Shown: positions 1-40,327, counted from the first letter of the stretch. The stretch: 64,000 bases of DNA from an uncultured Candidatus Saccharibacteria bacterium (GCA_964411375.1 CAYPKR010000001.1:422831-486830), one strand, 5' to 3'. Program-made: numbers and translations. Notes: generated by a model from the sequence alone, not told the origin.

Positions 1-1084
1 CTCGTTTGGCACGCTCGCAACTGATGTATGGAGCGCAACGACTCGGCTACTCACCGGAGCCTCGCTAAGCTCGGGGTCACTCGCGACATTGTCTGACGTG
101 CAAACTGCAAGTTCGTCGATTGCGGCTGCTGTTTCTAATAGTTCTTCTTCTGCCGGTTGGAATGTCACCATGTCAGATTTTGGCAGTGTCTTGGCAGGCG
201 GTGTATATCGAGCACGCATCACCATTCTTCACGACTCAACGCTCGCCGATCCAAATTCCGCACCATCTATTACGATTTATGATGCAAACCGAAGCACGAT
301 CGTTTCGGGCGCCGCAATGACGCACTCAAGTACCGGCGTCTATGAATACACATACACGACTTCCGGCTCTGCCGCCGAAGGAGTTTGGGAATCAGTTGTC
401 TCAACCGGTGTCGAATCAGGAAAAACAATTTCCACAAATGATTATTGGAATATTGTGACTGCGCCAGCGCAAGTACTTATCCAAAGCATGGCAAGTACCA
501 GTGTTCCTGATATCGGCGCGAATATTCGAATTACCAACGAAGGTAATGTTGATTATGAATATCATTATGAATGGTGCGTTGTCTCATCTCAGGCAAATTC
601 GTGCGGTGGTGGAGATGATACCTATTTCGCTTCTGCCTCGAAACTCATCCATCCAGGAGCTAATTTCGACACCACACTTTCGGCAACCGTTCCACTCGAT
701 GGCGCCTATTATTTTAAGGTTGTCGTTTATTACGGATCACAATCATCTGGCGCAACTCGCCAATTCTCAACTGATAACGCGTCGAGTGGTGGCGGGACAA
801 CTGGAGGAACAACAGGTACAACAGGCGGCGGAGGGACGACTGGCGGCGGAACCGGCGGTGGAGGTGGAGGCGGTGCTCTCGCTCCAATAATTCCAGTAGC
901 TAATCGAATTCCAAGCGATATCAATGGAGACGGTCGCGTAGACGGCATTGATTTCTCGATTCTCCTTGCCTATTGGAAAACCGCTCCTCCTTTCAAAAAT
1001 CCATCGGTGGATTTGAATGGAGACAACAAAGTAGATTCAATCGACTTCTCGATCCTTCTGTATCGCTGGGGTACTCATCAATAA
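1..1084 (+). CDS. Secreted dockerin-domain protein, 5' partial. The reading frame is open to the window's left edge. It has a Gly/Thr-rich linker and C-terminal tandem dockerin type I repeats.
   Basis: The frame is open from position 2 with no stop, so the listed start at 89 is internal. The C-terminus has two EF-hand-like dockerin repeats (DINGDGRVDGIDFSILLAYW and DLNGDNKVDSIDFSILLYRW). A long GGTTGG linker precedes them. Confidence 0.6.
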   Translation, partial: SFGTLATDVWSATTRLLTGASLSSGSLATLSDVQTASSSIAAAVSNSSSSAGWNVTMSDFGSVLAGGVYRARITILHDSTLADPNSAPSITIYDANRSTIVSGAAMTHSSTGVYEYTYTTSGSAAEGVWESVVSTGVESGKTISTNDYWNIVTAPAQVLIQSMASTSVPDIGANIRITNEGNVDYEYHYEWCVVSSQANSCGGGDDTYFASASKLIHPGANFDTTLSATVPLDGAYYFKVVVYYGSQSSGATRQFSTDNASSGGGTTGGTTGTTGGGGTTGGGTGGGGGGGALAPIIPVANRIPSDINGDGRVDGIDFSILLAYWKTAPPFKNPSVDLNGDNKVDSIDFSILLYRWGTHQ

Positions 1085-1087
1085 GAT

Positions 1088-1939
1088 ATGGAGATGCGCG
1101 CATATTACAAAATGTTTTTCCTCACCTCTCTCTTGTTCGGAGCAATTGCGTTTATTCCGACTGTCCATGCGCAAGAGATTGGACTCGTGAGTGAACCAAC
1201 ATCGTCATCAACGACGCGAGTGAATGTCGTCTTTAATCCAAATAATGAAGCATTCAACGCTATTGATGTGACGATCGTCACTCCCAAAGAAGCGGTAGTA
1301 TCGGAAGTAACAAGTGCAGGAAGTGCGTTGTCGCTTTTTCCAGTACCACCGCAATACACTTCGGAGACAAGAACGATAACCATGACCGGAGGACTGCCTG
1401 GATCATTTGCGCTCTCTAAAGATTCTGTCCTCATGAGTTTTGTTGTCGTCACTAAACAATCTCTTACATTTCGTGTATCAGGAAACGCATATCGCGCAGA
1501 CGGGAAGGGAACAAAGCTTTCAATTCCGGTGCGCTCGATCGCTATTTCATCGTCCCCGGGAGACGCTACGCCATCGGCTCCCGACAATCTGGATCCGGTC
1601 ATGTCGGCGTATGTTGGTCGCGATGAATCGCTTTTTGGTGGCCGATATTATGTTGTTTGGTACGGATCAGATAATCGATCAGGTACCTTGCACTATCAAG
1701 TAAAAGAAGGTTGGTGGGGAACATTCCACGATGCTTCAGGATATTATATTGTGCAGGATCAATCACTTGGCGCCCCGGTATGGGTTCGCGCAACAGATGA
1801 AGCGGGGAATTCAACAACCGTTCTCGTGTCTGGTACCAACACATCACTCTTCATTCCCGGTGTCGGTCTCGCACTCATCTTAATCGCAATTGTTGGATTC
1901 ATCGTCCTCAAACGAAAGCGAAAAGTATCAGTACTATGA
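1088..1939 (+). CDS. Cell-surface protein with an N-terminal signal peptide, a cohesin-like beta-sandwich domain, a second Ig-like domain and a C-terminal TM anchor followed by a basic tail.
   Basis: Signal peptide MEMRAYYKMFFLTSLLFGAIAFIPTVHA. The cohesin-like pattern (VNVVF....AIDVTIV...LSLFPVP...TITMTGG) is paralogous to the N-terminus of the next ORF. C-terminal anchor LALILIAIVGFIVLKRKRK. Confidence 0.5.
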   Translation: MEMRAYYKMFFLTSLLFGAIAFIPTVHAQEIGLVSEPTSSSTTRVNVVFNPNNEAFNAIDVTIVTPKEAVVSEVTSAGSALSLFPVPPQYTSETRTITMTGGLPGSFALSKDSVLMSFVVVTKQSLTFRVSGNAYRADGKGTKLSIPVRSIAISSSPGDATPSAPDNLDPVMSAYVGRDESLFGGRYYVVWYGSDNRSGTLHYQVKEGWWGTFHDASGYYIVQDQSLGAPVWVRATDEAGNSTTVLVSGTNTSLFIPGVGLALILIAIVGFIVLKRKRKVSVL

Positions 1940-3393
1940 GCGCATGCGCAAAAAAAATATTTGAAATATCCCGCGTAGTATTCATTCTCTCTATATTTCT
2001 TTATAGTCTCCCGACAGTTGTTTCTGCGGCGACTCTCAGTATTTCACCTGCCGGAGCGGGAGTTACTTCGGGAGATCTCGCGACGATTCGTCTCGCGCTC
2101 GATTCGGGTGGTACTGCAATAAATAACGCGGAAGGCACGCTCCGATTTCCAGTAGATCTGCTCCGTGTTGTTTCGATATCAAAATCCCCATCAATCTTCT
2201 CGCTCTGGGTTTCTGAGCCGGTATTTTCGAATACTGCGGGCACTATTTCATTTAATGGTGGAGTACCGTCTCCTGGATTTTCTGGATCAAACGGCACTGT
2301 CTTTACTGTTACGTTTGAAACAAAAAAAGTTGGCAGTGCAACTCTTTCAATTACTGATGCGTTTGTACGTGCAAATGATGGTGAGGGGACTAATGTACTA
2401 AATCAAGTATTTGGTGGAAGTATTTCGATTGCTCAGCCAAGCAGTGTGACGTCGCCTCCGAGTACTCCGCCGTCATCCAATATAGAATCAAAAGGAATTC
2501 AAATTTCTTCCGCGACACATCCTGACCAAACTCGGTGGTATCAAAATGGAGAGCCGATCTTTGGAGTTACTTTGCCAAGTAGTGCCACGCTGTTTGAAAT
2601 GAATATTTCGACCAGTAGTAAATCACTGGTATGGAATCCAGTTCCCAAACCGTATAGTTCGGTTTCAGTTGGAGAATTGGGAAGCGGCATATGGCATCTC
2701 TCGGTACGCGGAAAAACGGGCACGCTTAAAAATTCTCCTGCAACATATACTTTCCGTATCGATCGTACGTTGCCAACATTTGTCGATACCTCGTTCTCCT
2801 ATGACACGAAGAATAATCAGTTTCTCATAAATGCTATCGCAACCGATACTGATTCGGGAATCAAGGAATACACACTCCTTGTCGATTCGAGTAACCTACT
2901 CCATCTTCCAGAAAACGTATTTACCGAAGGTGTATATGCTATGGACGGAGGTTCAGTCGGAGCGCATCATGTGACGCTTTCGGCAATAGACGCTGCAGGT
3001 AATACTTCGACTATCAGCTCATCGTATGTAGTTCCCGCAAAGAGAGATACTGAATCTGGGGGTCTCAGTGGACTTATACTTTCGGTAATTGCCATAGTAA
3101 TTTTGTTGTCGGCCGCTGCACTCTTTGTAGCGCTTCGTACGTACCGAGCGGTGCATACTCGTGCCACACACATCGAATCTCACGTTCAGAAAGTAGTGCA
3201 TGATACCCATCACACACTCGTCGTATTTGGCAGACAATTGATTCAGGACATAGAAGCAATCAAGCGGGTCCAAAAAATACGCGGACTTTCTGCTGAGGAA
3301 AAAGAAACACTCCGTATGTTACTTCGAGAAACAGCGGTCTTGGAGCGCGAAGTCATCGAAAAAATACACCGAGTTGAGATGCGCGAGCGTTGA
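1936..3393 (+). CDS. Cohesin-domain surface protein with a signal peptide, cohesin, Ig-like domains, a C-terminal TM helix and a cytoplasmic coiled-coil tail.
   Basis: The start overlaps the stop of the previous gene (ATGA). Cohesin-like region: ATLSISPAGAGVTSGDLATIRLALDSGG...GTLRFPVDLLRVVSI...GTISFNGGV...ATLSITDAFVRANDGEG. TM helix LSGLILSVIAIVILLSAAALFVAL followed by a charged coiled-coil tail. Confidence 0.55.
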   Translation: MSACAKKIFEISRVVFILSIFLYSLPTVVSAATLSISPAGAGVTSGDLATIRLALDSGGTAINNAEGTLRFPVDLLRVVSISKSPSIFSLWVSEPVFSNTAGTISFNGGVPSPGFSGSNGTVFTVTFETKKVGSATLSITDAFVRANDGEGTNVLNQVFGGSISIAQPSSVTSPPSTPPSSNIESKGIQISSATHPDQTRWYQNGEPIFGVTLPSSATLFEMNISTSSKSLVWNPVPKPYSSVSVGELGSGIWHLSVRGKTGTLKNSPATYTFRIDRTLPTFVDTSFSYDTKNNQFLINAIATDTDSGIKEYTLLVDSSNLLHLPENVFTEGVYAMDGGSVGAHHVTLSAIDAAGNTSTISSSYVVPAKRDTESGGLSGLILSVIAIVILLSAAALFVALRTYRAVHTRATHIESHVQKVVHDTHHTLVVFGRQLIQDIEAIKRVQKIRGLSAEEKETLRMLLRETAVLEREVIEKIHRVEMRER

Positions 3394-3542: not shown

Positions 3543-4166
3543 ATGGAAGAAGTAGGGATGATGTCGAAGAAGGGGATGATGGGAAATAAGTGGACGAAGC
3601 TCGCGATCATTGTCGCAGTCCTTCTCGTCGTTGGAGCAGCGCTCTATATGATGCGCAGTTATTTTGTTGCGGCAACTGTTGATGGTGCACCGATTAGCAG
3701 ATGGAGTGTTATGAAAGAAGCAGAGAAACAGTCAGGAAAGGCCATCTTGGATTCCATGATCACTCAGAAACTTGTTGAAAAGGCACTGGATGAAGCAAAG
3801 GTGACTGTATCAAATGACGAAATTAATACAGAGCTCGCAAAAATCGAAGATCAATTGAAGAGCAGCGGCATGTCTCTTGATGATGCGCTCAAGGCACAAG
3901 GAATCACCAAGGAAGATTTGGTAAAGCAAATCAAAACGCAGAAGCGCGCAGAGAAGTTGCTCTCCGATAAACTTAGCGTTAGCGATGATGAAATCAAAAA
4001 GTACATTAGCGATAATAAATTGACTGCACCGCAAGGTACATCAGAAGCAGATTTCAAGACACAAGTTGCTGATGGACTTAAGGGACAGAAATTTAGCGCC
4101 GCTGCAGCTGACTGGGTAAATACTCTTCAGGCAAAAGCAAAGATCACTCGCTACGTTTCGTACTAA
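3543..4166 (+). CDS. Periplasmic chaperone-like protein containing only a SurA N-terminal domain, with an N-terminal membrane anchor.
   Basis: TM anchor WTKLAIIVAVLLVVGAALYMM is followed by AATVDGAPISRWSVMKEAEKQSGKAILDSMITQKLVEKAL, typical of the SurA/PpiD N-terminal chaperone domain. No PPIase domain is present. Confidence 0.45.
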   Translation: MEEVGMMSKKGMMGNKWTKLAIIVAVLLVVGAALYMMRSYFVAATVDGAPISRWSVMKEAEKQSGKAILDSMITQKLVEKALDEAKVTVSNDEINTELAKIEDQLKSSGMSLDDALKAQGITKEDLVKQIKTQKRAEKLLSDKLSVSDDEIKKYISDNKLTAPQGTSEADFKTQVADGLKGQKFSAAAADWVNTLQAKAKITRYVSY

Positions 4167-5550: not shown

Positions 5551-5603
5551 AAAAGAGCTGCTTTTTGTTGCGCACCATTTGCGCGATAAAAAGCAGCTCT
5601 CTT
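5551..5603 (+). promoter_or_regulatory. Large near-perfect inverted repeat (stem-loop) about 100 nt upstream of the first TasA-like gene.
   Basis: AAAAGAGCTGCTTTTT (5551-5566) pairs with AAAAAGCAGCTCTCTTT (5587-5603). The ~20 nt loop contains a nested GCGC...GCGC mini-hairpin. It lies in the 5' leader region of the gene cluster. Confidence 0.4.
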
Positions 5604-5701
5604 TGTATTTGGACGGAGTGCGCATGATGGTCGAGCATATGCGCGCCTTGTCCAAAGGGGGCGACGAAATTATTAGATTATCAATTAATTCACAGTCAAT
5701 T

Positions 5702-6580
5702 ATGAAAAGAATCGTTATGAGTTTGGGCGCAATCGTGTTTGTCGCTGCAGTTGCAGTCGGCGCAACCGGCGCGTTCTTCAATGATACAGAGACTTCGACT
5801 GGCAACACCTTCACCGCAGGCGCAATCGACCTCAGGGTTGATTCAACCCAGCACTACAACAACGCAGTTTGCGTGGTTGGACAAGCAAGCTCGACATGGC
5901 AGCTTGCACCGGGTGCGGTACTTGCGATTGACCAGTATCCAGTGATCGGCTCTCCGTGCGATGGCACATGGGCACTTACGGATCTCGGTCCAACATTCCA
6001 CTTCTTTAACTTCGGCGATGTAAAGCCTGAAGATCAGGGAGAGGACACGGTATCACTCCACATCGACAATAACCCCGCATGGGCATGCGCATACATCAAG
6101 ACAACTGGAAACAATGAGAATTCACTCATCGAACCAGAAGCAAGCGCAGGCGATGTAACCAATGATCCAAATGGCGGCGAGCTTGCGCAGAATATCCATG
6201 TATTCGCATGGCTCGACAACGCATCAACCTCAGGCGCTGTTGCCGGTGACAACATCTGGCAGGCAGGAGAATCAGTTCTCCAGACTCCCGTTGCACTCTC
6301 TGCACTTAATGCAACAACCACACTCACTCTTGCTGATGGTGGCACGGGCAATCCACTTCCAGGTGGCTCAACAAGCTACATCGGTCTCGGATGGTGCGCA
6401 GGTACGCTTAACGCAAGCATTCCAGGTTCATGGACTTGCGATGGTTCAACCATGGGCAATGAAACCCAGACTGACTCAGCAACCACGTCCGTATCCTTCT
6501 ACGTAGAGCAGGCTCGCAACAATGCAGATTTCCGCTGCGTTCCACAGGTAGAGGAAGTTGTTCCTAATCAACCCGAATAA
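5702..6580 (+). CDS. TasA/camelysin-like secreted protein with a SipW-cognate signal peptide (paralog 1).
   Basis: Start chosen at MKRIVMSLGAIVFVAAVAVGATGAFFNDTETSTGNTFTAGAIDLRVD, the hallmark SipW-cognate class signal and TasA N-terminus (AFFxDxExSxGNxFxAGxxDL). The upstream part of the 5579 ORF lies in an intergenic hairpin region. Confidence 0.7.
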   Translation: MKRIVMSLGAIVFVAAVAVGATGAFFNDTETSTGNTFTAGAIDLRVDSTQHYNNAVCVVGQASSTWQLAPGAVLAIDQYPVIGSPCDGTWALTDLGPTFHFFNFGDVKPEDQGEDTVSLHIDNNPAWACAYIKTTGNNENSLIEPEASAGDVTNDPNGGELAQNIHVFAWLDNASTSGAVAGDNIWQAGESVLQTPVALSALNATTTLTLADGGTGNPLPGGSTSYIGLGWCAGTLNASIPGSWTCDGSTMGNETQTDSATTSVSFYVEQARNNADFRCVPQVEEVVPNQPE

Positions 6581-7480
6581 GAATTAGATAATTCCCCGAT
6601 ATGAAAAAAATTCTGATTGGTGCCGCATCAATCGTACTCGTTGCCGCTGCAGCAGTTGGCGCAACTGGCGCATTTTTCTCCGATTCCGAAACGTCATCGG
6701 GAAATGTGTTCACTGCCGGCGCGATCGATCTCACCGTCGATTCAACGCAGCATTATAACAATGCAGTGTGTGTGATCGGTCCCGAGATTTCTTCGTGGCA
6801 GCTTGCGCCGGGCGCAGTTGAAGCGGGCGATCAGTATCCGGTAATCGGTTCTCCGTGCGATGGCACATGGGCTGAGACCAACCTTGGTCCAACGTTCCAT
6901 TTCTTCAACTTCGGCGATGTAAAACCTGCCGATCAAGGAGAAGACACGATATCACTCCATATCGAAAACAATTCGGCATGGGTATGTGCGTACATCAAAA
7001 CGACTGGCGACAATGAAAACGGCATCAACAATCCTGAATCAAAATCAGGAGATGTGACGAACGATCCATCGGGTGGCGAACTCGCAGAAAATATTCACGT
7101 ATTCGCATGGCTCGATAACGGTGTCGGCGGCGTGGATGACTCACGCCAAGCGGGCGACAACATCTGGCAGGCTGATGAACCAATACTCCAAGCTCCGCTT
7201 TCCTTAAGCGCCTTGAACGCAACGACGACGCTTACTCTTGCTGACTCAACAACCGGAAATGGTCCGCTTGCTGGCGGTACGACAAGTTTCATTGGTCTCG
7301 GATGGTGCGCAGGCACGCTTGTTGTAAATGGTCCCGGGAGCTGGTCATGCGATGGTTCAACCATGGGCAATGACACGCAGACCGATTCAGCAACAACATC
7401 TGTTTCATTTTACGTAGAGCAATCTCGTAATAACGCAAACTTCCGCTGTTCAAATGCAACGCTCGTTCATGTAACCGCAA
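5702..7480 (+). repeat. Tandem gene duplication: the ~880 bp N-terminal coding regions of TasA-like paralogs 1 and 2 are about 75-80% identical at the nucleotide level.
   Basis: Aligned stretches include GGCGCAATCGACCTCAGGGTTGATTCAACCCAGCACTACAACAACGCAGT versus GGCGCGATCGATCTCACCGTCGATTCAACGCAGCATTATAACAATGCAGT. Protein identity is near-complete across ~290 aa. Confidence 0.55.
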
Positions 7481-8142
7481 ATGATCTCGATCCAAATGGT
7501 CCGAACCCAGCAACGGTTCGACTCGATGGACTCGACAAGTGGTTCATGTACAACGACACGAATGACACTGTCGACAACACGCTCGGTACATTTGTTGCAG
7601 GACCAGGAACGCCGCCGTTTGGCGCAAACAGCATCCAGTTTGTACTTGCCGCAAGTCCGCTGGATCGAAAGAATATCGCGACGTATCAGTTTGCAGGAAC
7701 GCCACTCTCTTCGATCACCGAAATGAAGTACGGCGCGTACTCGCACTCGGGTGTTGCTGGACCGAATGAATCTCCGTATCTCAATTTCAACATTGATTTC
7801 ACGGGAAGCTCAGTCGTATTCCAGAAGCGCATCGCATACGTTCCAAGTCAAAATGGTGGAGTTCCGCAAGACACGTGGAACTCATTCGATACGATACAAA
7901 GCGGCAACGCGAAGTGGGTATATTCCGGCGCAACATGGCCAGCACCAAACGCGATTCCAGGAACGTCGCCAAAAACGTGGACCCAGATTCTTGCTGACTA
8001 TCCAAGCGCTCGGATTCTTCCAAGCGACAGCTGGCTTGGCATCCGCGTCGGCGAGCCAGGTCCAACCGGCTACATCGGTAATGTCGACTTCTTCACTATC
8101 GCAACGTCATCCGGACCGACGACGTACGACTTCGGAAATTAA
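6601..8142 (+). CDS. TasA/camelysin-like secreted protein with a SipW-cognate signal (paralog 2) and an extra ~220 aa C-terminal domain of unknown function.
   Basis: MKKILIGAASIVLVAAAAVGATGAFFSDSETSSGNVFTAGAIDLTVD. The first ~290 aa are near-identical to paralog 1, including DTVSLHIDNN/DTISLHIENN and SFYVEQ(A/S)RNNA(D/N)FRC. Confidence 0.7.
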   Translation: MKKILIGAASIVLVAAAAVGATGAFFSDSETSSGNVFTAGAIDLTVDSTQHYNNAVCVIGPEISSWQLAPGAVEAGDQYPVIGSPCDGTWAETNLGPTFHFFNFGDVKPADQGEDTISLHIENNSAWVCAYIKTTGDNENGINNPESKSGDVTNDPSGGELAENIHVFAWLDNGVGGVDDSRQAGDNIWQADEPILQAPLSLSALNATTTLTLADSTTGNGPLAGGTTSFIGLGWCAGTLVVNGPGSWSCDGSTMGNDTQTDSATTSVSFYVEQSRNNANFRCSNATLVHVTANDLDPNGPNPATVRLDGLDKWFMYNDTNDTVDNTLGTFVAGPGTPPFGANSIQFVLAASPLDRKNIATYQFAGTPLSSITEMKYGAYSHSGVAGPNESPYLNFNIDFTGSSVVFQKRIAYVPSQNGGVPQDTWNSFDTIQSGNAKWVYSGATWPAPNAIPGTSPKTWTQILADYPSARILPSDSWLGIRVGEPGPTGYIGNVDFFTIATSSGPTTYDFGN

Positions 8143-8163
8143 TCCAATTCACGGTAGAAACTC

Positions 8164-9489
8164 ATGAAAAAAATCCTCTTAAGCCTCGGATCCATCCTCT
8201 TCGTCGGCGCACTCTTGGCCGGCGGGACGGGCGCATTCTTGGCTGATTCGGGGAAGTCAACGGGAAATACATTCGCGAGCGGCGTCATCAATCTCAAAGT
8301 CGATAACGAAAGTTATGTCACCGACAATTGGGGCAAACTTATCTTCTCGACATCGACATCGTGGAATCTCTCTAATCTGGAAGGAAAATTATTCTTTAAT
8401 TTTCTCGACCTGAAACCGGGAGATATTGGCGAAGACACCATCTCGCTCCATGTGAACAACAATAACGCATGGGCGTGCATGAACGTAAGTGTGACGGCAA
8501 CGCCTGAAAATGGTCAGCCTGAACCAGAAGCCGCAGTGGATCCGACGGTCGGATCAAACGACGGCGAACTGCAGAATTATCTCCAGTTTGTATTCTGGGC
8601 AGATGATGGCGACAACGTCTTTGAAAAAGGAGAAGACGTTTTCAAAAAAGGATTGGTCAAAGATATTTTCAACGGAAAAAATTGGCCGATTGCCGATTCG
8701 AAGAACAATATCTGGAGCCAAAATGGTCCGCTCCTTCCGGAATATACCTACTACATCGGCAAAGCATGGTGCTTTGGAACAATGACCGAAGTACCGCTTC
8801 CGCAGGATGGGTTTAGTAAGAAGGGAAACAACGGACCTCTGCAGCGCGGAACCGGATTCACGTGTTCAGGCGTCGATGTTGGAAATATCGTGCAGTCTGA
8901 CGGAATTAAGGCAGATGTCTCATTCGCAGTCGCACAAGCACGAAATAATAATTCGTTCCTGTGTTCCGACGGAGGAGATCCAAAAAATCCGCCAACCGGA
9001 ACGTCCACAATATTTAGCGACAACTTCGAGAGTTACCAGAATGGGCATCGATGTGATGACGGCAAGGATGATAAAAATTGGGATCAACAGGGTGGCGTGA
9101 AGTTTGTATCGCTTGGCGGAGTACACAGCAAAGTTGCTGATCTCCAGAGCTCATCGGCAAACAATCACAAAGTCGTCATGATTTCATCCGGCATCAATTT
9201 GACTGGCTTCCACAACGTCACGCTTTCATACGATCGAAAGCTTGATGATGTTGATGCGCCGCCAGTTGGGACACAGAATTTGCTCGTCGAATTCAGTACA
9301 AACGGTGGGGGTTCATGGACAACACTTGAAAATGTTTCGGGTGAAGTAGATTGGACGACGAAGTCCTTCTCACTCTCGCCGAGTGCTGACAACAAGTCGA
9401 ATGTAAAACTTAGATTTACCTTTACGGGACAGGATGGTTCAAATCACGCATATATCGACAACGTGGTTGTAACCGCCGTCACTCCGTAA
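8164..9489 (+). CDS. TasA/camelysin-like secreted protein with a SipW-cognate signal (paralog 3) and a C-terminal beta-rich domain.
   Basis: MKKILLSLGSILFVGALLAGGTGAFLADSGKSTGNTFASGVINLKVD. Shares the motifs ISLHVNNNNAWAC, FVFWADDGDNVFEKGE and YIGKAWCFG with paralog 4. Confidence 0.65.
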   Translation: MKKILLSLGSILFVGALLAGGTGAFLADSGKSTGNTFASGVINLKVDNESYVTDNWGKLIFSTSTSWNLSNLEGKLFFNFLDLKPGDIGEDTISLHVNNNNAWACMNVSVTATPENGQPEPEAAVDPTVGSNDGELQNYLQFVFWADDGDNVFEKGEDVFKKGLVKDIFNGKNWPIADSKNNIWSQNGPLLPEYTYYIGKAWCFGTMTEVPLPQDGFSKKGNNGPLQRGTGFTCSGVDVGNIVQSDGIKADVSFAVAQARNNNSFLCSDGGDPKNPPTGTSTIFSDNFESYQNGHRCDDGKDDKNWDQQGGVKFVSLGGVHSKVADLQSSSANNHKVVMISSGINLTGFHNVTLSYDRKLDDVDAPPVGTQNLLVEFSTNGGGSWTTLENVSGEVDWTTKSFSLSPSADNKSNVKLRFTFTGQDGSNHAYIDNVVVTAVTP

Positions 9490-9524
9490 ATTTGAAAGCT
9501 TTTATTAGTTACTGAAACGCAGTT

Positions 9525-10955
9525 ATGAAAAGAATTCTCGGAAGCCTCACTGTCCTCACCGCCGTCGGGCTTCTTGCCATCGGTGCGACCGGAGCATTCT
9601 TCTCGGACTCGGAAGTCTCGAGCGCAAATACATTTGCCGCTGGAGCAATCGATCTCAAAATCGACAATCACGGTTACTATAATCACAACGAATGTAAGGA
9701 AGTAACCGCCGGAGTATTTCAGTGGGTTGGGCAAGCTGATTTCCCAGTCCCTGGAACTTCCTGCAGTGATTCGTGGAGTGTGACCGATCTTACGATCCAG
9801 AAGTTCTTCGATTTCACTGACATAAAGCCGGGCGATACCGGGGAAGATACAATTTCGCTTCATGTGAGCAACAACGACGCGTACATGTGCGCCAATGTGA
9901 AATTGACGTCAAACGACGACAATGGACTCACTGAACCGGAAGGGCAGATTGATCCAACTGATGGACCAGGAAATGGTGAACTCGCATCAAATGTAAACTT
10001 CGTGTGGTGGGCAGATGACGGCGACAATGTTCTTGAAGATAACGAAAAGGTTATCTCACAAGGACCAATCGGCGCGCTCGGATTAAACGGCTCGACAACC
10101 GTTCCGCTTGCCGACTCACAGAATAATATTTGGACGGGAACTCCAGGTCCGGTGCCGGGAGATCAAACACTCTACATCGGCAAAGCGTGGTGCTTTGGAA
10201 ACATCGGTGCTGCTCCTCTTGTACAAGATGGACTTGGCACGACGTCTCCACGCACTCCTGGAAATTCAACGGGTGGAATCACCTGCGATGGGCACTTGCT
10301 CGACAACTCAACGCAGACAGATAGTTTGACCGCAGATGTTACCTTTACCGCAGTTCAAGCTCGTCATAATTCTGATTTCCTCTGCACTCCACCAGTGCGC
10401 GAAAGTGGAGATTTGATCGTGACGAAAGTAGTCGTAAATAACAACGGCGGCAACAATGTCGTGAACGATTTCCATCTCTTTGTTGACGATGGATTTGTCT
10501 CGACTGCAATCATCTCTGGTGCAACGACTACGCTTCCTGCTGGAACATACAGCGTGAATGAAAGTGGAGATTCTGGTTACCAGGCTTCATTCTCCGGCGA
10601 TTGTGATCAAGATGGAAATGTTACGGTCACAAATGGTGGTGTAAAACATTGCACCATCACGAATACCGAACTTCCTGCGCACATCACGCTTACGAAAGTC
10701 GTGATTAATCATGGAGGAACGGCAACACCAAATTCCTTCACGATGCGCATTGATGGGGGTGCGAAAGTACCAAGTGGTTCATCAGTCGCTGTTACTTCAA
10801 ACGCACTTCACTCAATCAATGAAGATGCAAAGACGGGATATCACTTCGTCTCGATTACCGGCAGTCCAAAATGTCCGGCAGTCTTAGGCGGCACTGCAAT
10901 GCTTGATGAAGGTGAAACGATTTCGTGCACCATCACCAACGAGCAGAACCAATAG
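9525..10955 (+). CDS. TasA/camelysin-like secreted protein with a SipW-cognate signal (paralog 4) and two C-terminal CnaB/prealbumin-fold-like repeats.
   Basis: MKRILGSLTVLTAVGLLAIGATGAFFSDSEVSSANTFAAGAIDLKID. The C-terminus has two ~90 aa repeats (LIVTKVVVNNNGGNNVVNDFHLFVDDG...TYSVNESGDSGY and ITLTKVVINHGGTATPNSFTMRIDGG...GYHFVSITGSP). Confidence 0.65.
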   Translation: MKRILGSLTVLTAVGLLAIGATGAFFSDSEVSSANTFAAGAIDLKIDNHGYYNHNECKEVTAGVFQWVGQADFPVPGTSCSDSWSVTDLTIQKFFDFTDIKPGDTGEDTISLHVSNNDAYMCANVKLTSNDDNGLTEPEGQIDPTDGPGNGELASNVNFVWWADDGDNVLEDNEKVISQGPIGALGLNGSTTVPLADSQNNIWTGTPGPVPGDQTLYIGKAWCFGNIGAAPLVQDGLGTTSPRTPGNSTGGITCDGHLLDNSTQTDSLTADVTFTAVQARHNSDFLCTPPVRESGDLIVTKVVVNNNGGNNVVNDFHLFVDDGFVSTAIISGATTTLPAGTYSVNESGDSGYQASFSGDCDQDGNVTVTNGGVKHCTITNTELPAHITLTKVVINHGGTATPNSFTMRIDGGAKVPSGSSVAVTSNALHSINEDAKTGYHFVSITGSPKCPAVLGGTAMLDEGETISCTITNEQNQ

Positions 10956-10961
10956 ATTCAA

Positions 10962-12416
10962 ATGAAATTGATCTTCGCTACAATCCGATACTTGTTAATC
11001 GGAGGAGTCGTTCTCCTAACGCTCCTTCTTCTTGGCACACTCATGCCAATTCAAGGTGGGATAAAAGTGAAGATTGTGAAGTCTGGTTCGATGGAACCGA
11101 CGATTATGACGGGTTCGATTGTCATTATCAAACCCGAACCCGCATATTCGATCGGCGACATCATCACCTTCGGCAAAGATACCAAGACACAAATTCCGAC
11201 CACGCACCGCATTGTTGCGGTTTCGGGGTCGGGAGCATCGAGCGAGTTCCAAACAAAAGGGGACGCGAATGATGCTCCCGATCCGGTAGCAACTCGCATG
11301 AGTGATATTTCTGGAAAAGTAATTTTCCACGCATCCTACATCGGCTACATTCTTGATTTTGCGAGAAAGCCTCTCGGCTTCGCGCTTATTGTCGGCGTTC
11401 CAGCATTCGCAATCATTTTGGACGAGGTTATGAAGATAGTTGCAGAAGTCCGCCGTATGAGACGAGAGAAACGGAAAGCTGCTCCAGTTGTTCGTACAGA
11501 GGAAATTGCTCCGCCTCCACCACCACCAACTCCGCGCCGAAACGTTTCGTCTGATGGGATTATGAAAATGCAGCCTCCAGTTAGGGAGCCCGAGCATTTT
11601 CTAAAAACAGAACCGAAGGAGTCACATATATATGTAAAATCATTTACCGCAATGTTGTTTATTGTGGGTTCGCTTGCTGGAATTTCGTCAATCGGCGGGA
11701 CGAAAGCGTACTTCAATGATGTAGAAGTATCGATTGGCAATTTACTCAAAGCCGGACTCGTATCTCTCGTCATTTCAACCGACAATGATACCCTTGGTCG
11801 CGCCGCATTTGTACAAACACTCGATGCATCATCAAGCAACGAGACAAATAATGGAGAAACTCCCCCGAAGGAAGAATATGCAATTGGTAGTGATTTATTT
11901 TCAATCGATATTAATAAAGGAGATCAAAGTTTCCCACTGCAATATACGATTACACCAAAACTCGACGATGATGCGCCAAATGGTTGTAAGGAAATGACGC
12001 TTGAAGCATGGATCGGCGATTTTCACTGGAGTGGATTACTTACCGATTTCAATCTTCCTGCCACAACAACACTCGGACACCTGCAATTTTTGCTCACGAT
12101 TCCGGTACCAAATACACTCGCACCAAATGCTGAGTGTGGCGGCGCACTTATCTTCAAAGCCGGAATTGCCGGTGCACCGGATCCTTTGAAGCATGTATTT
12201 TCAGACACCAAAGAATATCGATTTGAAATTTTGAATAGTGAAACTACTCCAAGTGAGGAAGAAACTACAGAAGCGGATCAAGAATCTGGTAATCCAACCG
12301 AACCTAGTGCGTCCTCGAATGAGGCAGAAAATGCCAGCACTTCACCAGTCGGGGGAGAGGAAGCTCCCGCGGCAGAGGCAATTGATGGCTCTGTAGAGGC
12401 TCAAATAGAAGAATAA
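10962..12416 (+). CDS. sipW: Type I signal peptidase of the SipW (S26B, archaeal/ER-like) class. The same reading frame continues through a poly-Pro linker and a TM segment into a TasA-like domain.
   Basis: N-terminal TM segment, then KIVKSGSMEPTIMTGSIVIIKPEP (the catalytic Ser box, SGSMEPT) ...THRIVAV...KGDANDAPD (SipW C-box). After a second TM (PLGFALIVGVPAFAIIL) and PPPPPPTPRR, there is a third hydrophobic segment followed by GGTKAYFNDVEVSIGNLL, a SipW-cognate/TasA-like N-terminus. No stop codon separates the two parts. Confidence 0.7.
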   Translation: MKLIFATIRYLLIGGVVLLTLLLLGTLMPIQGGIKVKIVKSGSMEPTIMTGSIVIIKPEPAYSIGDIITFGKDTKTQIPTTHRIVAVSGSGASSEFQTKGDANDAPDPVATRMSDISGKVIFHASYIGYILDFARKPLGFALIVGVPAFAIILDEVMKIVAEVRRMRREKRKAAPVVRTEEIAPPPPPPTPRRNVSSDGIMKMQPPVREPEHFLKTEPKESHIYVKSFTAMLFIVGSLAGISSIGGTKAYFNDVEVSIGNLLKAGLVSLVISTDNDTLGRAAFVQTLDASSSNETNNGETPPKEEYAIGSDLFSIDINKGDQSFPLQYTITPKLDDDAPNGCKEMTLEAWIGDFHWSGLLTDFNLPATTTLGHLQFLLTIPVPNTLAPNAECGGALIFKAGIAGAPDPLKHVFSDTKEYRFEILNSETTPSEEETTEADQESGNPTEPSASSNEAENASTSPVGGEEAPAAEAIDGSVEAQIEE

Positions 12417-12969: not shown

Positions 12970-13728
12970 ATGGCAGTTCCCCGCCAAAAAATTACCGCAC
13001 TCATCCCATGCTACAACGAAGCAGAGGGTATTAAATCTGTGATCGAAAGTTTTCCGCTCGCGGAACTCAATCAATATGGTTTTGATGTTGAAATCGTTAT
13101 TATCGATAATAATTCAACGGACGGTACCGCCGCGATTGCTCGCTCTCTTGGTGCAACAGTGATTCATGAGCCGAAAAAAGGAAAGGGAAATGCAATGCGC
13201 ACCGGATTTTTCTCAATATCTGATGACACGGATTTTGTCGTGATGCTCGACGGTGACGACACCTATCGTCCGGAAGAAATTCTTCGAATGGTTGAACCGC
13301 TTAAAGCTGGATTTGCCGATGTCATCATTGGATCTCGCCTCAGCGGTAAGATCAAAGAAGGTTCCATGAAAGGACTGAATCGTCTTGGCAACTGGACGTA
13401 TTCATTTTTAGTGCGCATTTTCTATCAAGTAAATGTCACAGACGTACTGACTGGATATTTTGCATGGAAAACAGAAGCACTTGAACGTCTTCGTCCACAT
13501 TTGCACTCCGAAGGTTTTGCAATCGAGATGGAAATGGTTACCAAAATGGCACGACTTGGCCAGGAAATCTATTCGGTACCAATCAGCTATCACCCACGTG
13601 CTGGCGAGAGTAACTTGAGCCCAATCTATGATGGTGCACGCATCATGACTATGTTCACCAAAAATCTCTTCTGGAGCCCTGTACCATGGAGATTCTTCCG
13701 TCCTCGCTTCTTCCGCAGGGGCGCCTAG
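12970..13728 (+). CDS. Family 2 glycosyltransferase, dolichyl-/polyprenyl-phosphate sugar transferase-like.
   Basis: ALIPCYNEAEGI, VIIDNNSTDGTAAIA and MLDGDDTY (DxD) motifs of GT2/GT-A. Confidence 0.75.
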   Translation: MAVPRQKITALIPCYNEAEGIKSVIESFPLAELNQYGFDVEIVIIDNNSTDGTAAIARSLGATVIHEPKKGKGNAMRTGFFSISDDTDFVVMLDGDDTYRPEEILRMVEPLKAGFADVIIGSRLSGKIKEGSMKGLNRLGNWTYSFLVRIFYQVNVTDVLTGYFAWKTEALERLRPHLHSEGFAIEMEMVTKMARLGQEIYSVPISYHPRAGESNLSPIYDGARIMTMFTKNLFWSPVPWRFFRPRFFRRGA

Positions 13729-13738
13729 AAGAAAGTGC

Positions 13739-15568
13739 ATGAAAATTGTTTCCGTATCACATTACTACACCCCGCATATCGGCGGACTCGAAATCGTCGC
13801 ACGTAAGTTGGCGCGCAGTTTGACTGCTTCCGGCCACGAGGTTTCGATTGTCACTTTTAAAACTGATCCTATTCCAAGCGTGTCAGTAGAAGAGGGCGTG
13901 ACTGTATATCGTGTTCGCGGTCTCAATTTTTTTGATACCTATTTTGGTATCCCGTTTCCAATTGGCGGAATCGGACTTTTTTCAAGACTCTTTCGTGAGA
14001 TACAAACTGCAGACGCGGTGCACCTCCATGATGTTTTTTATCAGTCGTCTTGGATCGCCTATTTTTTTGCCAGGCTTTTGGGAAAGCCGCTCATTCTGAC
14101 TCAACACGTTGGAATAGTTGAACATCCAAGCGCTATCGTTATGGGGATTCAGAAAGCAGTCTATCGCGCGATTGGACGAATGATTTTTGCGTTCGCTGAA
14201 ACTATTATTGTATACAACCGAAATGTCCGTACCTTCTTGGAAAAAGAAGGGGTGCCAACGGGGAAAATTATCGAACTTCGAAATGGAATCGACACGAATA
14301 CATTCTGTCCAATTGATAGAGCACTTCGAAAAGAGAAGCGTCAGGCGCTCGGGCTTCCCGCGGACCGTCCACTCGCGCTTTTTGTTGGTCGCTTTGTGCC
14401 GAAGAAAGGATTTACCGAAGTATATGGCGCGCGTGATCCAAAATATGATCTAGTTTTTGTTGGAAGTGGTAATTTTCCCGAGGAATACAAAAAAACTAAC
14501 GGTGTCTATTGTCTGGGACCAAAAAACCAAACAGAACTCGCTCTAATCTACCCGCTCGTCGATTTCTTTGTATTTCCTTCAAAAGGAGAAATGTTTACGC
14601 TGGTGATGCAGGAGGCGATGGCAGCAGGACTTCCTATTGTCACCACCAATGAACCTGGCTATGCGGAATATAATCTCGATCAAACACTTATCACATTTGT
14701 TGAGCCAAAAGCAGAATCTCTCAAAACGACAATGACTAAACTGGTTGATGATCCGGAACTGCTCCAAAAAATGGGTGCGTACTCGCGCGCACTTGCGGTT
14801 GAGCGATTTGATTGGGATACCAATATTAGTCCACTACTTTCAATCTATGCGGATATTGCCAAAAGAAAGAGGGTAATCGTTACGACAAGTTGGGACGATG
14901 GTCATATTCTTGATCTCAAGCTCGCAGATCTTCTTCGAAAATATTCCGTAGGTGGAACATTTTATATTTCGCCTCGCGATCATGAAATTATTCCGGAAAA
15001 GCGTCTCTCGAATGAGCAAATCAGAAGTCTCCTTCCGGATTTTGAAATTGGTGCGCACACGATGACCCATCGCCCGCTTCCAACTATTTCGGATGATGCG
15101 GCAAACGAGGAAATTATTACTTCCAAAAAATATCTTGAGGAAGTAATTGGAGGACCGGTCACGAGCTTTTGTTACCCACGCGGTGAATACACACCGACAC
15201 ATGCAATAATGACGAAGCAGGCCGGCTTTCACCTTTCGCGCACGGTTGCTCGTTTTTCATACGACACTGGTTCAAATCCATTTGAACTTCCGACTTCAGT
15301 TCATACGTACGATCACTTCTCTGATGTTTGGGGTGTACTTCGCCTTGCAAAATTCAATCCAATGCGTTTCTTGAAGTTGTATCGCAACTGGGAAGCACAA
15401 GCGATCGCTATGTTTGATGCAGTCTCAAAACGCGGCGGCATATTCCATTTGTGGGGACACAGTTGGGAAGTAGACGATCATAATGATTGGAATCGACTTG
15501 AGCGAGTACTTCAGTATGTCGGGGGCAGGGCGAATGTTTCGTATGTAGCGAACAGAGAACTGGTATGA
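13739..15568 (+). CDS. Bifunctional protein: GT4 glycosyltransferase fused to a polysaccharide deacetylase (NodB-homology) domain.
   Basis: The N-terminus is GT4-like (HYYTPHIGGLE ... EAMAAGLPIVTT). The C-terminal ~230 aa carry VIVTTSWDDGHILDLKLADLL (the NodB motif TxDDG) and HTMTHRPL (His-His metal site). Confidence 0.75.
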   Translation: MKIVSVSHYYTPHIGGLEIVARKLARSLTASGHEVSIVTFKTDPIPSVSVEEGVTVYRVRGLNFFDTYFGIPFPIGGIGLFSRLFREIQTADAVHLHDVFYQSSWIAYFFARLLGKPLILTQHVGIVEHPSAIVMGIQKAVYRAIGRMIFAFAETIIVYNRNVRTFLEKEGVPTGKIIELRNGIDTNTFCPIDRALRKEKRQALGLPADRPLALFVGRFVPKKGFTEVYGARDPKYDLVFVGSGNFPEEYKKTNGVYCLGPKNQTELALIYPLVDFFVFPSKGEMFTLVMQEAMAAGLPIVTTNEPGYAEYNLDQTLITFVEPKAESLKTTMTKLVDDPELLQKMGAYSRALAVERFDWDTNISPLLSIYADIAKRKRVIVTTSWDDGHILDLKLADLLRKYSVGGTFYISPRDHEIIPEKRLSNEQIRSLLPDFEIGAHTMTHRPLPTISDDAANEEIITSKKYLEEVIGGPVTSFCYPRGEYTPTHAIMTKQAGFHLSRTVARFSYDTGSNPFELPTSVHTYDHFSDVWGVLRLAKFNPMRFLKLYRNWEAQAIAMFDAVSKRGGIFHLWGHSWEVDDHNDWNRLERVLQYVGGRANVSYVANRELV

Positions 15569-37363: not shown

Positions 37364-38005
37364 ATGGAAATATATAAAGTAAGAAAAAATCAATATTTAT
37401 GGGGAGGTCTATTTTTTGGCATAATCCTGGTCGCTCTTAGCATCTCCTTGATTGGTGAAGGATCTATCGAAAGAACTAAATTCTTAGGGTTAATTGGATT
37501 TTGGGCCATAGCAATTATCCTGACTCTTGCCCCGTTTGGTTTTAAGTTAGAGGTAGGAGAAGATTACGTAAAAACATTTTTTTTGGGATTCTGTCTAAGA
37601 TACTTAAAGCGCGAAAATATTGAAGTCATTGAATATGGAAATTTGATGCGTGGCGGGGGATTGGGTTATGGAAAAGGCTTGAAAGGTTGGGAAAGAACTA
37701 AGAGAGGAAATCGAAAGTATTTTAGTATCGGGGAAGATGCTTATGGTAAGGGAGCAATGAAAGGCATTGCTCGTGCTCTTAGTAAAGACTCTCTACTTGA
37801 AAATAAGTTTAAGAACCAGGATCCCCATAAGGAAATTGATAGTAAAAAGAAAGTTCAGATAGCCATGATATGGACTGCTGGCTCGATAATAGGTTTCTTT
37901 CTTTTGCTTAATTATGCTCAAAATACAAAATTCGCCATTCTTATTCCGATTTCTATTCTCTCGTTAATTATTTCAATGGTGTATTTAATTAAGGCCAAGA
38001 GTTAA
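37364..38005 (+). CDS. Putative cognate immunity protein: four-TM membrane protein with a central bPH-like soluble domain.
   Basis: Starts 1 nt after the toxin stop. TM helices GLFFGIILVALSISLIG, LIGFWAIAIILTLAPFGF, two C-terminal helices, and a central Gly/Lys-rich domain. Position and topology fit immunity to a membrane-targeting toxin. Confidence 0.45.
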   Translation: MEIYKVRKNQYLWGGLFFGIILVALSISLIGEGSIERTKFLGLIGFWAIAIILTLAPFGFKLEVGEDYVKTFFLGFCLRYLKRENIEVIEYGNLMRGGGLGYGKGLKGWERTKRGNRKYFSIGEDAYGKGAMKGIARALSKDSLLENKFKNQDPHKEIDSKKKVQIAMIWTAGSIIGFFLLLNYAQNTKFAILIPISILSLIISMVYLIKAKS

Positions 38006-39777: not shown

Positions 39778-39821
39778 GGATGACGCTGATCCATGGGGGA
39801 GTCAAGGATTTTCTGGTATAT

Positions 39822-40241: not shown

Positions 40242-40327
40242 CCGCGCTCTTCACCGTCAATCTTTACGGACTTCTGTTAGTATTGCATGTTATGGACTGG
40301 ATATGCCCTATATGATATACTTCAAGC

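Follow-up and report, generated by a model that had tools for sequence, protein, structure and literature searches.

A putative non-cellulosomal cohesin-dockerin surface-anchoring module in a Patescibacteria bacterium

What does an ultra-small bacterium do with a dockerin protein that is encoded directly in front of two cohesin-like membrane proteins? We analysed a 64-kb stretch of DNA (the window) from a member of the Patescibacteria (Parcubacteria/Paceibacteria-type), which has such a locus at its left edge. A reading made from the sequence alone had proposed that the three genes act together to hold a secreted, dockerin-tagged protein at the cell surface. The data presented here suggest that the trio is probably a non-cellulosomal cohesin-dockerin surface-anchoring module. 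The domains of the three proteins are already annotated in public records; a description of the three-gene operon was not found in the literature.

Gene layout and conservation of the locus

All three ORFs of the sequence-only reading were found (Table 1). They encode the dockerin protein (DOC) and a small and a large cohesin protein (C2 and C3). The reported overlap of stop and start was confirmed for the second gene junction, where C2 and C3 share four nucleotides (ATGA), while the first junction needs a minor amendment: DOC and C2 do not overlap but are 3 nt apart. Promoter-like sites (6, with 6.6 expected) and terminator-like sites (4, with 3.7 expected) are not in excess, and none of either type is located on the coding strand inside the three genes. 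Together with the short gap and the overlap this shows that DOC, C2 and C3 have a tight operon structure.

At least 573 related stretches were identified among the GTDB species genomes. Eighty related loci, one per Patescibacteria species, were compared, and 64 of them show the order DOC, C2, C3; most of the others are fusions, have additional cohesin copies or end with the contig. The cohesin and dockerin genes are adjacent and co-inherited, both in this genome and in the 64 species loci, and the conserved order strengthens the tether idea. DOC is usually a single gene per locus and near-universal in the family. Conservation within the trio is highest in the dockerin, with a mean pairwise identity of 57%, and in the C3 cohesin, with 50%.

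Table 1. Features of the locus and of a downstream GH5-family gene (positions in the window).
Feature	Position	Strand	Remarks
ORF1, DOC, dockerin-protein gene, 3′ 1,083 nt	1..1084	+	frame from nt 2, stop 1082-1084, open at the left window edge
DOC, two predicted beta-sandwich (MG2/Ig-like) domains, C-terminal core conserved in the DOC family	155..766	+	weak MG2 and PirA-like Pfam matches
DOC, Gly/Thr-rich flexible linker before the dockerin	782..874	+	direct reading: SSGGGTTGGTTGTTGGGGTTGGGTGGGGGGG
DOC, predicted type I dockerin with a pair of 22-residue Ca-binding repeats (first nt 917 and 1010)	914..1075	+	Pfam PF00404
ORF2, C2, small membrane-anchored cohesin protein (predicted), 283 aa	1088..1939	+
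C2, predicted signal peptide, residues 1-28, ends VHA|QE	1088..1171	+	hydrophobic segment; N-terminal helix in model; Sec-type
C2, predicted cohesin domain, residues 29-155, nine strands	1172..1552	+	profile and structure matches
C2, predicted Ig-like stalk domain, residues 170-247	1595..1828	+	strands in model
C2, predicted transmembrane helix, then a short basic tail in the cytoplasm (KRKRKVSVL)	1841..1936	+	model and hydrophobic segment
ORF3, C3, large membrane-anchored cohesin protein (predicted), 485 aa	1936..3393	+
C3, predicted signal peptide, residues 1-31, ends VSA|AT	1936..2028	+	hydrophobic segment; model
C3, predicted cohesin domain, residues 32-168	2029..2439	+	PF00963 in relatives; Foldseek; profile alignment to 5m2o
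C3, Pro/Ser-rich disordered linker	2440..2496	+	pLDDT <50 at residues 171-185
C3, two predicted Ig/FN3-like stalk domains, residues 188-367	2497..3036	+	weak DUF7743 and OmpL47-type matches
C3, predicted transmembrane helix	3064..3135	+	model and hydrophobic segment
C3, predicted cytoplasmic helical tail, about 85 aa, residues 401-485	3136..3390	+	family-conserved
GH5-family protein	24829-26310		without dockerin

The dockerin protein

To obtain the complete DOC, the window was extended leftwards using sequence L001, which is identical to it across the entire overlap (window position 1 corresponds to L001 position 8066). The gene begins 1,370 nt beyond the left window edge (L001:6696) and encodes a protein of 817 aa consisting of a signal peptide, Ig-like domains, Ser/Thr/Ala/Asn-rich repeats and the dockerin; these four residues account for 50-70% of the middle region. 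The N-terminal part, for which the extension had been suggested as a check, thus turned out to be a repeat-rich Ig-like fibre and not catalytic. A catalytic domain was likewise not found in 44 relatives, in a 1,404-aa homologue (L002) or in three giant homologues. Relatives share the C-terminal core of DOC with 40-67% identity, and an MG2 match is present in 29 of 44 family members (Pfam). The length of DOC homologues varies more than 13-fold between species, from 247 to >3,345 aa, and two of the giants are made up of 16-27 FN3 repeats and a dockerin. DOC is most likely a variable surface fibre, possibly an adhesin or a surface coat.

Pfam Dockerin_1 (PF00404) matches residues 305-352 of the partial protein (nt 914-1057) with an E-value of 2.4e-10 and 40.9 bits, which is above the curated cut-off of 22.9 bits. 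Dockerins consist of two segments of approximately 22 residues, in which an EF-hand-like Ca loop with Asp/Asn at positions 1, 3, 5, 9 and 12 is followed by a helix. This duplication is found in DOC: the repeats read DINGDGRVDGID... and DLNGDNKVDSID..., and in DINGDGRVDGIDFSILLAYWKT as well as in DLNGDNKVDSIDFSILLYRWGT the five positions are D/N/D/D/D. The dockerin consensus could be drawn from 71 relatives, PF00404 was found in all 44 DOC relatives, and type I dockerins rank first when the DOC family profile is compared with the PDB (2yik, 4.8e-6). The two classical type I repeats originally read from the sequence are thereby corroborated, with canonical Ca ligands in both, and the C-terminus of DOC is, as judged from its sequence, a canonical type I dockerin. 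The pair is the sole dockerin-like motif pair across the six frames of the window; the search for further dockerins covered 74 kb of the approximately 514-kb genome.

Membrane anchors and cohesin domains of C2 and C3

C2 and C3 contain exactly two hydrophobic segments each, a signal-peptide-like one at the N-terminus and a second one at the C-terminus, the latter with basic residues directly behind it (KRKRK in C2, RTYR in C3). Both are thus predicted to be type I membrane proteins that have a signal peptide and are anchored by a single transmembrane helix at the C-terminus. The C-terminal tail of C3 is a second HMM domain (E 3e-13) that is conserved within the family; long helices are predicted at residues 374-448 and 453-484 with pLDDT values of 78-87.

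Anchoring by sortase (LPXTG) was considered and rejected. The LPXTG models remain sub-threshold for C2 (12.6 vs 20 bits and 14.3 vs 15.9 bits; Pfam/NCBIfam), and a conserved sortase motif is absent in front of the C-terminal segment: a loose motif occurs in 4 of 79 C2 tails, which is chance level, and in none of the 47 C3 tails.

The PF00963 cohesin family does not match C2 or C3 themselves in Pfam, even at E ≤ 1, and a cohesin was found neither with NCBIfam nor in a PDB search with the single sequences. It does match 8 of the 79 C2 relatives (best E 5.2e-11) and 26 of the 47 C3 relatives (best E 8.2e-10); DUF7743 matches 9 of the former and Big_13 32 of the latter. The Pfam check proposed with the sequence-only reading was therefore directly positive for the dockerin (PF00404), whereas for the cohesins it was positive only via the relatives. 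C2 matches the family profile of C3 with 95.7% probability (hhalign). A PDB search with the C2 family profile places the cohesins 5aoz, 5m2o and 5m2s on top (E 1e-3), and positions 3-135 of the 136 positions of a joint C2 and C3 domain profile align to residues 6-140 of 5m2o (E 4.6e-4), a solved cohesin of Ruminococcus flavefaciens ScaB that is thereby aligned end to end. Both cohesin families have the motifs N, S..LW, GG.P and NDG.GT, which are invariant across species.

Cohesins fold into a nine-strand jelly-roll beta-sandwich of approximately 140 aa, in contrast to the seven-strand Ig fold. The two AlphaFold models, which are confident (pLDDT 88.2 and 90.8), show such nine-strand sandwiches at the N-termini, in C2 at residues 30-153. 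The top Foldseek match for both is 2w1n, a cohesin and FN3 double module. Among single domains, cohesins match C3 best, with TM-scores of 0.72-0.79 and an rmsd of 2.5-3 Å; of these, 1g1k, 6kgd, 5nrm and 2xdh match as whole modules (TM 0.78-0.79, rmsd 2.5-2.7 Å). The best single-domain matches of the C2 model are the cohesins 2vo8 and 2jh2 with moderate TM-scores of 0.62-0.66, and other beta-sandwiches, for example a collagen-binding domain and YcnI, follow closely. Taken together, family-level Pfam, profile and structure evidence supports the prediction that the N-terminal domains of C2 and C3 are cohesins. The assignment has held under profile search and structure prediction, which had been named beforehand as the analyses on which it could fail, and hydrophobic segments and models agree with the signal peptide, cohesin-like beta-sandwich and C-terminal transmembrane segment that had been read in each protein.

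Alternative explanations and proposed function

The C2 and C3 ectodomains might also be generic beta-sandwiches that do not bind dockerins, with the dockerin having a different target (for example cell wall, host or some other protein) and the genes being linked only by a shared surface role. The missing direct Pfam match and the moderate fold match of C2 would fit, and to our knowledge the roles of many non-cellulosomal dockerins are not known. Nevertheless, this explanation is improbable: cohesin homology has four independent lines of evidence, the motifs mentioned above are invariant in both families, and without an interaction it would be difficult to account for a dockerin gene and two cohesin genes being strictly adjacent in 64 of 80 species. 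A miniature cellulosome, in which the cohesin proteins are scaffoldins for dockerin-bearing carbohydrate-active enzymes, is largely refuted and retains hardly any probability. Cohesin and dockerin are the defining modules of cellulosomes, the structure matches are to cellulosomal cohesins and a GH5-family protein is encoded 21 kb downstream, but this protein has no dockerin, and that of DOC is the only one in 64 kb. No scaffoldin that combines several cohesins with a carbohydrate-binding module was found, since C2 and C3 have one cohesin domain each and no such module, and dockerin-bearing enzymes were not found either, as the linked dockerin proteins scanned lack enzyme domains.

Two further alternatives concern the export and the nature of DOC. 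In this genome tatC-tatA(-tatA) ends 32 nt ahead of the DOC start codon, and tatC-tatA is located directly upstream of DOC in 15 of the 33 loci with a visible DOC start. One source labels a C3 relative 'TatA', and RR occurs in a few DOC signal peptides (e.g., RRNRRFLL in L042). This could indicate that tatC-tatA and the trio are one export-and-anchoring unit, with DOC or the cohesin proteins being Tat substrates or Tat-associated receptors. We regard this as very unlikely: a twin-arginine motif (S/T-R-R-x-F-L-K-type, within the signal peptide) is present in none of the 79 C2 and 47 C3 relatives, it is absent from the DOC of this genome and only sporadic in others, and about half of the loci have no tat genes beside DOC. 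In addition, a profile comparison of the C3 tail with TatA gives no similarity (hhalign probability 1%), and it is implausible that Tat exports proteins of more than 3,300 aa. DOC could also be an S-layer or surface-coat protein that is held by the cohesin proteins, instead of a host-attachment adhesin. A Ser/Thr/Ala/Asn-rich composition as in the middle of DOC is typical of surface-layer proteins, the DOC gene is near-universal and typically single in a locus, and Luef et al. (2015) reportedly observed surface layers on ultra-small groundwater bacteria. This is unlikely, however, because the length spread and the beads-on-a-string FN3 architecture of the giants fit a fibre better than a lattice-forming protein, and an S-layer family match was not found in DOC or its relatives (Pfam).

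The non-cellulosomal anchoring module favoured here resembles several known systems. R. flavefaciens possesses CttA, a non-catalytic adhesin that is, like ScaB, an X-dockerin partner of ScaE. ScaE is the cell-anchoring scaffoldin of this bacterium (PMC12270676). As proposed for C2 and C3, it is a single-cohesin envelope protein whose ligand is a dockerin at the C-terminus of a non-catalytic protein, and the ScaB cohesins 5aoz and 5m2o are the best solved sequence relatives of the C2 and C3 family profiles. In contrast to C2 and C3, with their predicted transmembrane helix and no sortase motif, ScaE is attached to peptidoglycan by sortase, and it belongs to an enzyme-carrying cellulosome with >200 dockerin proteins, whereas here there are one enzyme-free partner and two cohesin proteins. 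Surface cohesins also dock dockerin proteins on the cell in Clostridium (Acetivibrio) thermocellum, namely OlpA and OlpC (type I cohesins) and SdbA and OlpB (type II); the OlpA and OlpC cohesin-dockerin complexes 3ul4 and 4dh2 match C3 with TM-scores of 0.72-0.77. These proteins attach to the wall by SLH domains and bind enzymes or scaffoldin. C2 and C3 differ from them by the transmembrane helix, the Ig-like stalks and the conserved 85-aa cytoplasmic tail of C3.

Cohesins are used outside cellulose degradation in Archaeoglobus fulgidus (2xdh, TM 0.78 to C3) and in the Clostridium perfringens GH84C, GH33 and toxin-complex modules (2w1n, 2vo8, 2jh2). The C. perfringens modules serve to assemble enzyme complexes from secreted glycoside hydrolases; here, unlike there, a three-gene operon with one dockerin fibre and two membrane cohesin proteins is conserved in many species. 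That cohesin-dockerin pairs also exist in non-cellulolytic lineages is already established, according to PMC10066038, which cites the survey by Peer et al. (2009). Omnitrophota nanobacteria have giant repeat-rich extracellular proteins with non-cellulosomal dockerins that were proposed to be adhesins (PMC10066038; bioRxiv 10.1101/2023.11.21.568195). Like DOC they are very large repeat-rich dockerin proteins of ultra-small, probably host-dependent bacteria. They contain several internal dockerin-like units, and the passages considered here describe no dedicated membrane cohesin partner genes for them, whereas DOC has a single dockerin at its C-terminus and lies next to the genes of two putative cohesin receptors.

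In the proposed mechanism DOC, C2 and C3 would be exported via ordinary Sec-type signal peptides. C2 and C3 would stay in the cytoplasmic membrane by their single C-terminal helix and each present one cohesin outward, C2 on one Ig-like stalk domain and C3 on two. The 817-aa DOC would be released, and its dockerin would fold around two Ca2+ ions. That it binds a cohesin, be it that of C3, of C2 or of both, is what we infer; the co-variation of the dockerin with the two cohesins is nearly equal (Spearman 0.39 and 0.40) and singles out neither. A speculative and unlikely extension is that C2 and C3 form a heteromeric membrane receptor, whose two cohesins clamp both near-symmetrical faces of one dockerin at once. 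The trio would then be the conserved attachment organelle of Parcubacteria-type Patescibacteria. Its receptor would be a mount that bears the load of a host-contact fibre of species-specific type and variable length, and the conserved cytoplasmic C3 tail and the neighbouring TatAC genes would couple this mount to the cell interior or to its export. In the proposed mechanism itself, docking would fasten the long enzyme-free fibre so that the conserved N-terminal Ig-like domain points away from the cell. Judged by its architecture, the fibre would most likely be an adhesin or a protein of the surface coat, with which the bacterium makes contact with other cells or with surfaces.

The dockerin gene and its operon

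The left end of the window (positions 1-3393, + strand) carries three co-directional ORFs. ORF1 is the 3′ portion of the gene for the dockerin protein (DOC) and is separated from ORF2 by 3 nt; ORF2 and ORF3 have the sequence ATGA in common, so the stop/start overlap that the sequence-only reading had described for the two cohesin-like genes is present. Promoter- and terminator-like sites showed no excess over shuffled sequence, and none was found on the coding strand inside the three genes. We read the three genes as one operon. The module probably does not include the next gene downstream of ORF3, since unrelated small proteins are encoded at the equivalent position of L002, one of the related loci.

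ORF1 ends in 50-60 residues that match Pfam Dockerin_1 (PF00404) with 40.9 bits (E 2.4e-10; cut-off 22.9 bits). The two nearly symmetrical halves contain the repeats DINGDGRVDGIDFSILLAYWKT and DLNGDNKVDSIDFSILLYRWGT, each with Asp or Asn in all five of the five canonical Ca-binding positions, which confirms the type I dockerin proposed for the end of the first ORF. PF00404 was matched by 44 of 44 aligned DOC relatives, and the best matches of the DOC family profile among solved structures are type I dockerins of clostridial cellulases. The dockerin takes up window positions 914-1081, and a second dockerin-like repeat pair was not found in a six-frame motif scan of the 64-kb window.

The public contig L001, which overlaps the left end of the window and bears exactly ORF3, was used to extend ORF1 leftwards; it is identical to the window across the entire 4.2-kb overlap and adds 8 kb upstream. 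Full-length DOC has 817 aa and consists of a Sec-type signal peptide, an N-terminal Ig-like domain, a region of approximately 350 aa with 50-70% Ser/Thr/Ala/Asn in which the block W.Y..RTL.SFGTLATDVWSATTRLLTGA...GSLATLSDV occurs three times, two beta-sandwich domains with weak MG2 similarity, a Gly/Thr linker and the C-terminal dockerin. Neither a catalytic nor a carbohydrate-binding domain was detected in the 817 aa. The N-terminal part, for which the sequence-only reading had proposed the leftward extension, proved to be structural, and the cargo of the dockerin is a fibre-like protein.

Features of the window, of contig L001 and of two related loci. Positions refer to the window unless a locus is named.
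Feature	Position	Strand	Description
ORF1 (3′ portion of DOC)	left edge (frame from nt 2) to stop 1082-1084	+	from ORF calling
ORF2	1088-1939	+	283 aa
ORF3	1936-3393	+	485 aa
tatC and two tatA genes	L001:5566-6664, left of the window		directly upstream of the DOC start (L001:6696)
Genes upstream of tatC	L001:1855-5569		several small proteins without family match, among them a pair of paralogues (267 and 269 aa), a 248-aa acidic protein rich in Pro and Glu, and one of 144 aa that faintly resembles a phage tail-collar fibre (E 0.028)
Gene downstream of ORF3	3543-4166		207-aa membrane-anchored protein, SurA-like N-terminal chaperone domain (E 4e-12)
Secreted protein genes	5579-12416		co-directional; 333, 513, 441, 476 and 484 aa; possibly a second cluster of surface-fibre or pilin-like genes
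Within this cluster	5579-6580, 6601-8142		clearly paralogous products; N-termini match the camelysin/TasA-type (Peptidase_M73) signal region
Within this cluster	9525-10955		same N-terminal match; additional SpaA-like prealbumin domain
Glycosyltransferase cluster	12970-22504		GT2, GT4-polysaccharide deacetylase fusion, DUF2206 membrane protein, two large double-GT4 proteins (743 and 788 aa)
Polysaccharide-export gene	23427-24689	opposite to glycosyltransferase cluster	Polysacc_synt/MatE-like
GH5 'cellulase'-family protein	24829-26310		493 aa
Large protein	29791-37362		2,523 aa; SpvB, FG-GAP repeat and DUF6443 matches; Tc-toxin- or RHS-like architecture
Possible element	38002-50786		may be integrated or acquired
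Large serine recombinase	38002-39777	-	
LOOT RNA	41342-41458		70.6 bits
ParB-DNA methylase fusion	42463-43806	-	
Higher-G+C block	after the ParB-DNA methylase fusion, within 38002-50786		G+C 0.51-0.55 vs about 0.45; two HlyD-like proteins, MFS transporter, ABC-2 transporter
Giant DOC	L046:3-9962		cut by locus edge
Giant DOC	L034:1-10038		cut by locus edge

Cohesin domains and membrane topology of ORF2 and ORF3

ORF2 and ORF3 alone do not match the Pfam Cohesin family (PF00963) even at E≤1, and NCBIfam and single-sequence PDB searches returned only noise. The assignment therefore required family profiles and structure models. Patescibacteria contain hundreds of ORF3 relatives, some of which NCBI names 'cohesin domain-containing protein', and PF00963 is matched by 26 of the 47 aligned family members (best 8.2e-10). 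When clustered at 50% identity, the ORF2 family forms more than 2,100 clusters; here, eight of 79 aligned members match (best 5.2e-11). The Pfam check suggested by the sequence-only reading is thus positive for the dockerin itself, while the cohesin match is found in relatives and not in ORF2 or ORF3 directly. The ORF3 family profile matches residues 25-144 of ORF2 with 95.7% probability, and the two families can be readily aligned, with the invariant motifs N, S..LW, GG.P and NDG.GT in common. Among solved structures, the top matches of the ORF2 family profile are the R. flavefaciens ScaB cohesins 5aoz, 5m2o and 5m2s, and positions 3-135 of a 136-position joint cohesin-domain profile align with residues 6-140 of 5m2o (E 4.6e-4). 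The whole-length ORF3 family profile reached a cohesin in the PDB at E 0.69 only, because it is dominated by Ig-like domains; the joint profile of the cohesin domain alone did better.

The AlphaFold models are confident (pLDDT 88.2 for ORF3, 90.8 for ORF2). The N-terminal domain of ORF3 matches whole cohesin modules with structural match scores (TM) of 0.72-0.79 and an rmsd of 2.5-3 Å, including 1g1k, 6kgd, 2vn6, 5nrm and the archaeal, non-cellulosomal 2xdh. The ORF2 cohesin domain is modeled with nine strands, and among single domains it is best matched by 2vo8 and 2jh2, cohesins of C. perfringens (TM 0.62-0.66). This match is moderate, and for ORF2 the sequence-profile evidence weighs more. 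In window coordinates, the cohesin of ORF2 spans 1172-1552 and that of ORF3 2029-2439. The top overall match of both models is the cohesin+FN3 double module 2w1n, the layout of which mirrors the predicted arrangement of a cohesin and an Ig-like stalk in both proteins. Four independent lines of evidence (relatives, paralogy, profiles against solved structures, and structure) support the presence of cohesins in ORF2 and ORF3, and the proposed cohesin-like identity withstands family-profile search and structure prediction despite the missing direct Pfam match.

Both proteins have exactly two hydrophobic segments: at the N-terminus, a signal peptide that ends in an A-x-A-type site, and at the C-terminus, a helix with basic residues behind it. 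Both models show helices at the two termini. This agrees with the signal peptide and C-terminal membrane anchor claimed earlier for each protein. They look like type I membrane proteins whose cohesin would face outward, carried by one Ig-like domain in ORF2 and by two in ORF3. The cytoplasmic tail of ORF3 has approximately 85 aa, is conserved and is predicted to be helical. Sortase anchoring of ORF2 and its relatives (C2), prompted by weak matches to LPXTG models, was rejected, since the motif is not conserved in the family; ORF3 likewise shows no conserved sortase motif.

Conservation of the trio and the tat neighborhood

Scanning GTDB with one genome per species revealed at least 573 ORF3-related stretches. 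We retrieved 80 loci, called the ORFs and scanned these with alignment-derived HMMs. All named loci belong to Patescibacteria (Nomura-, Adler-, Zambryski-, Vogel-, Yanofsky-, Falkow-, Doudna- and Taylorbacteria, Paceibacteria, Minisyncoccia). The strict same-strand order of DOC, C2-like and C3-like (ORF3-like) genes was found in 64 of the 80 loci, and the others are mostly variants or interrupted by contig ends. The variants are a C2-C3 fusion (L047) and additional cohesin genes (L074, L082, L083). The shortest DOC has 247 aa and the longest more than 3,345 aa; ten of the proteins are cut by the 10-kb flank. Two giant DOC proteins (L046, L034; more than 3,300 aa) are built of 16-27 FN3 repeats, after which comes the conserved dockerin of the other DOC proteins. 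C2 has its full length in these two loci and is shortened to approximately 200-220 aa in the giant-form loci L010, L014, L021, L038 and L045. The C-terminal approximately 360 aa of DOC relatives are 40-67% identical to the DOC studied here. Mean pairwise identity is 57% for the dockerin, 50% for the C3 cohesin and 32% for the C2 cohesin. Mirror-tree analysis of co-variation between dockerin and cohesins gave Spearman coefficients of 0.40 (C2) and 0.39 (C3) and partial correlations of 0.18 and 0.19; neither cohesin stood out as the partner of the dockerin.

The tatC-tatA(-tatA) genes end 32 nt before DOC, and tat lies directly upstream of DOC in 15 of the 33 related loci with a visible DOC start, which suggests a functional link of the trio to Tat. 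Against such a link, the adjacency is absent from half of the loci, and no consistent twin-arginine signal was found in DOC, C2 or C3. The motif occurs in 0/79 C2 and 0/47 C3 relatives, on which grounds both were rejected as Tat substrates; DOC as a Tat substrate is not supported. The idea of a TatA-like C3 tail, which arose from the JGI name of the C3 relative P0095, was likewise rejected: profile-profile comparison gave a probability of 1%, and the tail is unrelated to TatA. We regard the adjacency as an unexplained association.

A candidate surface tether

The analysis shows which domains are present, features of their topology, the structure of the operon and its conservation. The best-supported reading of the trio is a non-cellulosomal surface tether. 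DOC, C2 and C3 would be exported by Sec, C2 and C3 would be retained in the membrane, and the Ca-loaded dockerin of DOC would plug into the cohesin(s) of C2 and C3, so that a variable, enzyme-free fibre would be mounted on the cell. We infer the binding, its stoichiometry and the role of the fibre, which might be an adhesin or a surface coat. The near-symmetry of the dockerin is compatible with a dual-binding mode to a single cohesin and also with simultaneous engagement of C2 and C3.

A cellulosome-like enzyme scaffold is essentially excluded: each cohesin protein has a single cohesin, none of the DOC, C2 and C3 proteins examined has an enzyme domain or CBM, and the nearby GH5-family protein is dockerin-free, which counts against a cellulosome-like role of the cohesins. 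That ORF2 and ORF3 are generic Ig-like proteins without dockerin binding is disfavored by the four lines of cohesin evidence and by the synteny of a dockerin gene with two cohesin genes. The closest functional counterpart of the proposed tether is R. flavefaciens ScaE, which also docks CttA, a non-catalytic adhesin. ScaE is anchored by sortase, whereas the trio has transmembrane anchors, two paralogous cohesin proteins, no cellulosome and a host from the Patescibacteria. ScaE is described as a cell-anchoring protein with a single cohesin (PMC12270676). Cohesins and dockerins outside cellulosomes are reported from all three domains, and non-cellulosomal pairs have been a concept since 2009 (Peer et al. 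2009, cited in PMC10066038); in Omnitrophota, an adhesin role has been proposed for giant proteins with dockerins (PMC10066038). A cohesin-dockerin operon in Patescibacteria was not found described in the open-access full texts searched, and public records already label some members 'cohesin domain-containing protein' or 'dockerin type I domain-containing protein'. Since the domains are already annotated and non-cellulosomal pairs have been known since 2009, the trio extends a known principle and is not a new one.

Patescibacteria (Candidate Phyla Radiation) account for a large part of bacterial diversity, and most are believed to live attached to other cells. To our knowledge, almost nothing is known of how cells of Parcubacteria-type lineages hold on. 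The trio, which is widespread in Patescibacteria, is a concrete and testable candidate for a surface-attachment device, with conserved receptor genes and a variable fibre (approximately 250 to more than 3,300 aa). As a natural, genetically paired and enzyme-free set of one dockerin and two cohesins, it is a clean case for the roles of these modules outside cellulosomes and for the question of whether a symmetrical dockerin is able to bind two distinct cohesins. It is a good candidate for the apparatus by which members of this poorly understood radiation attach.
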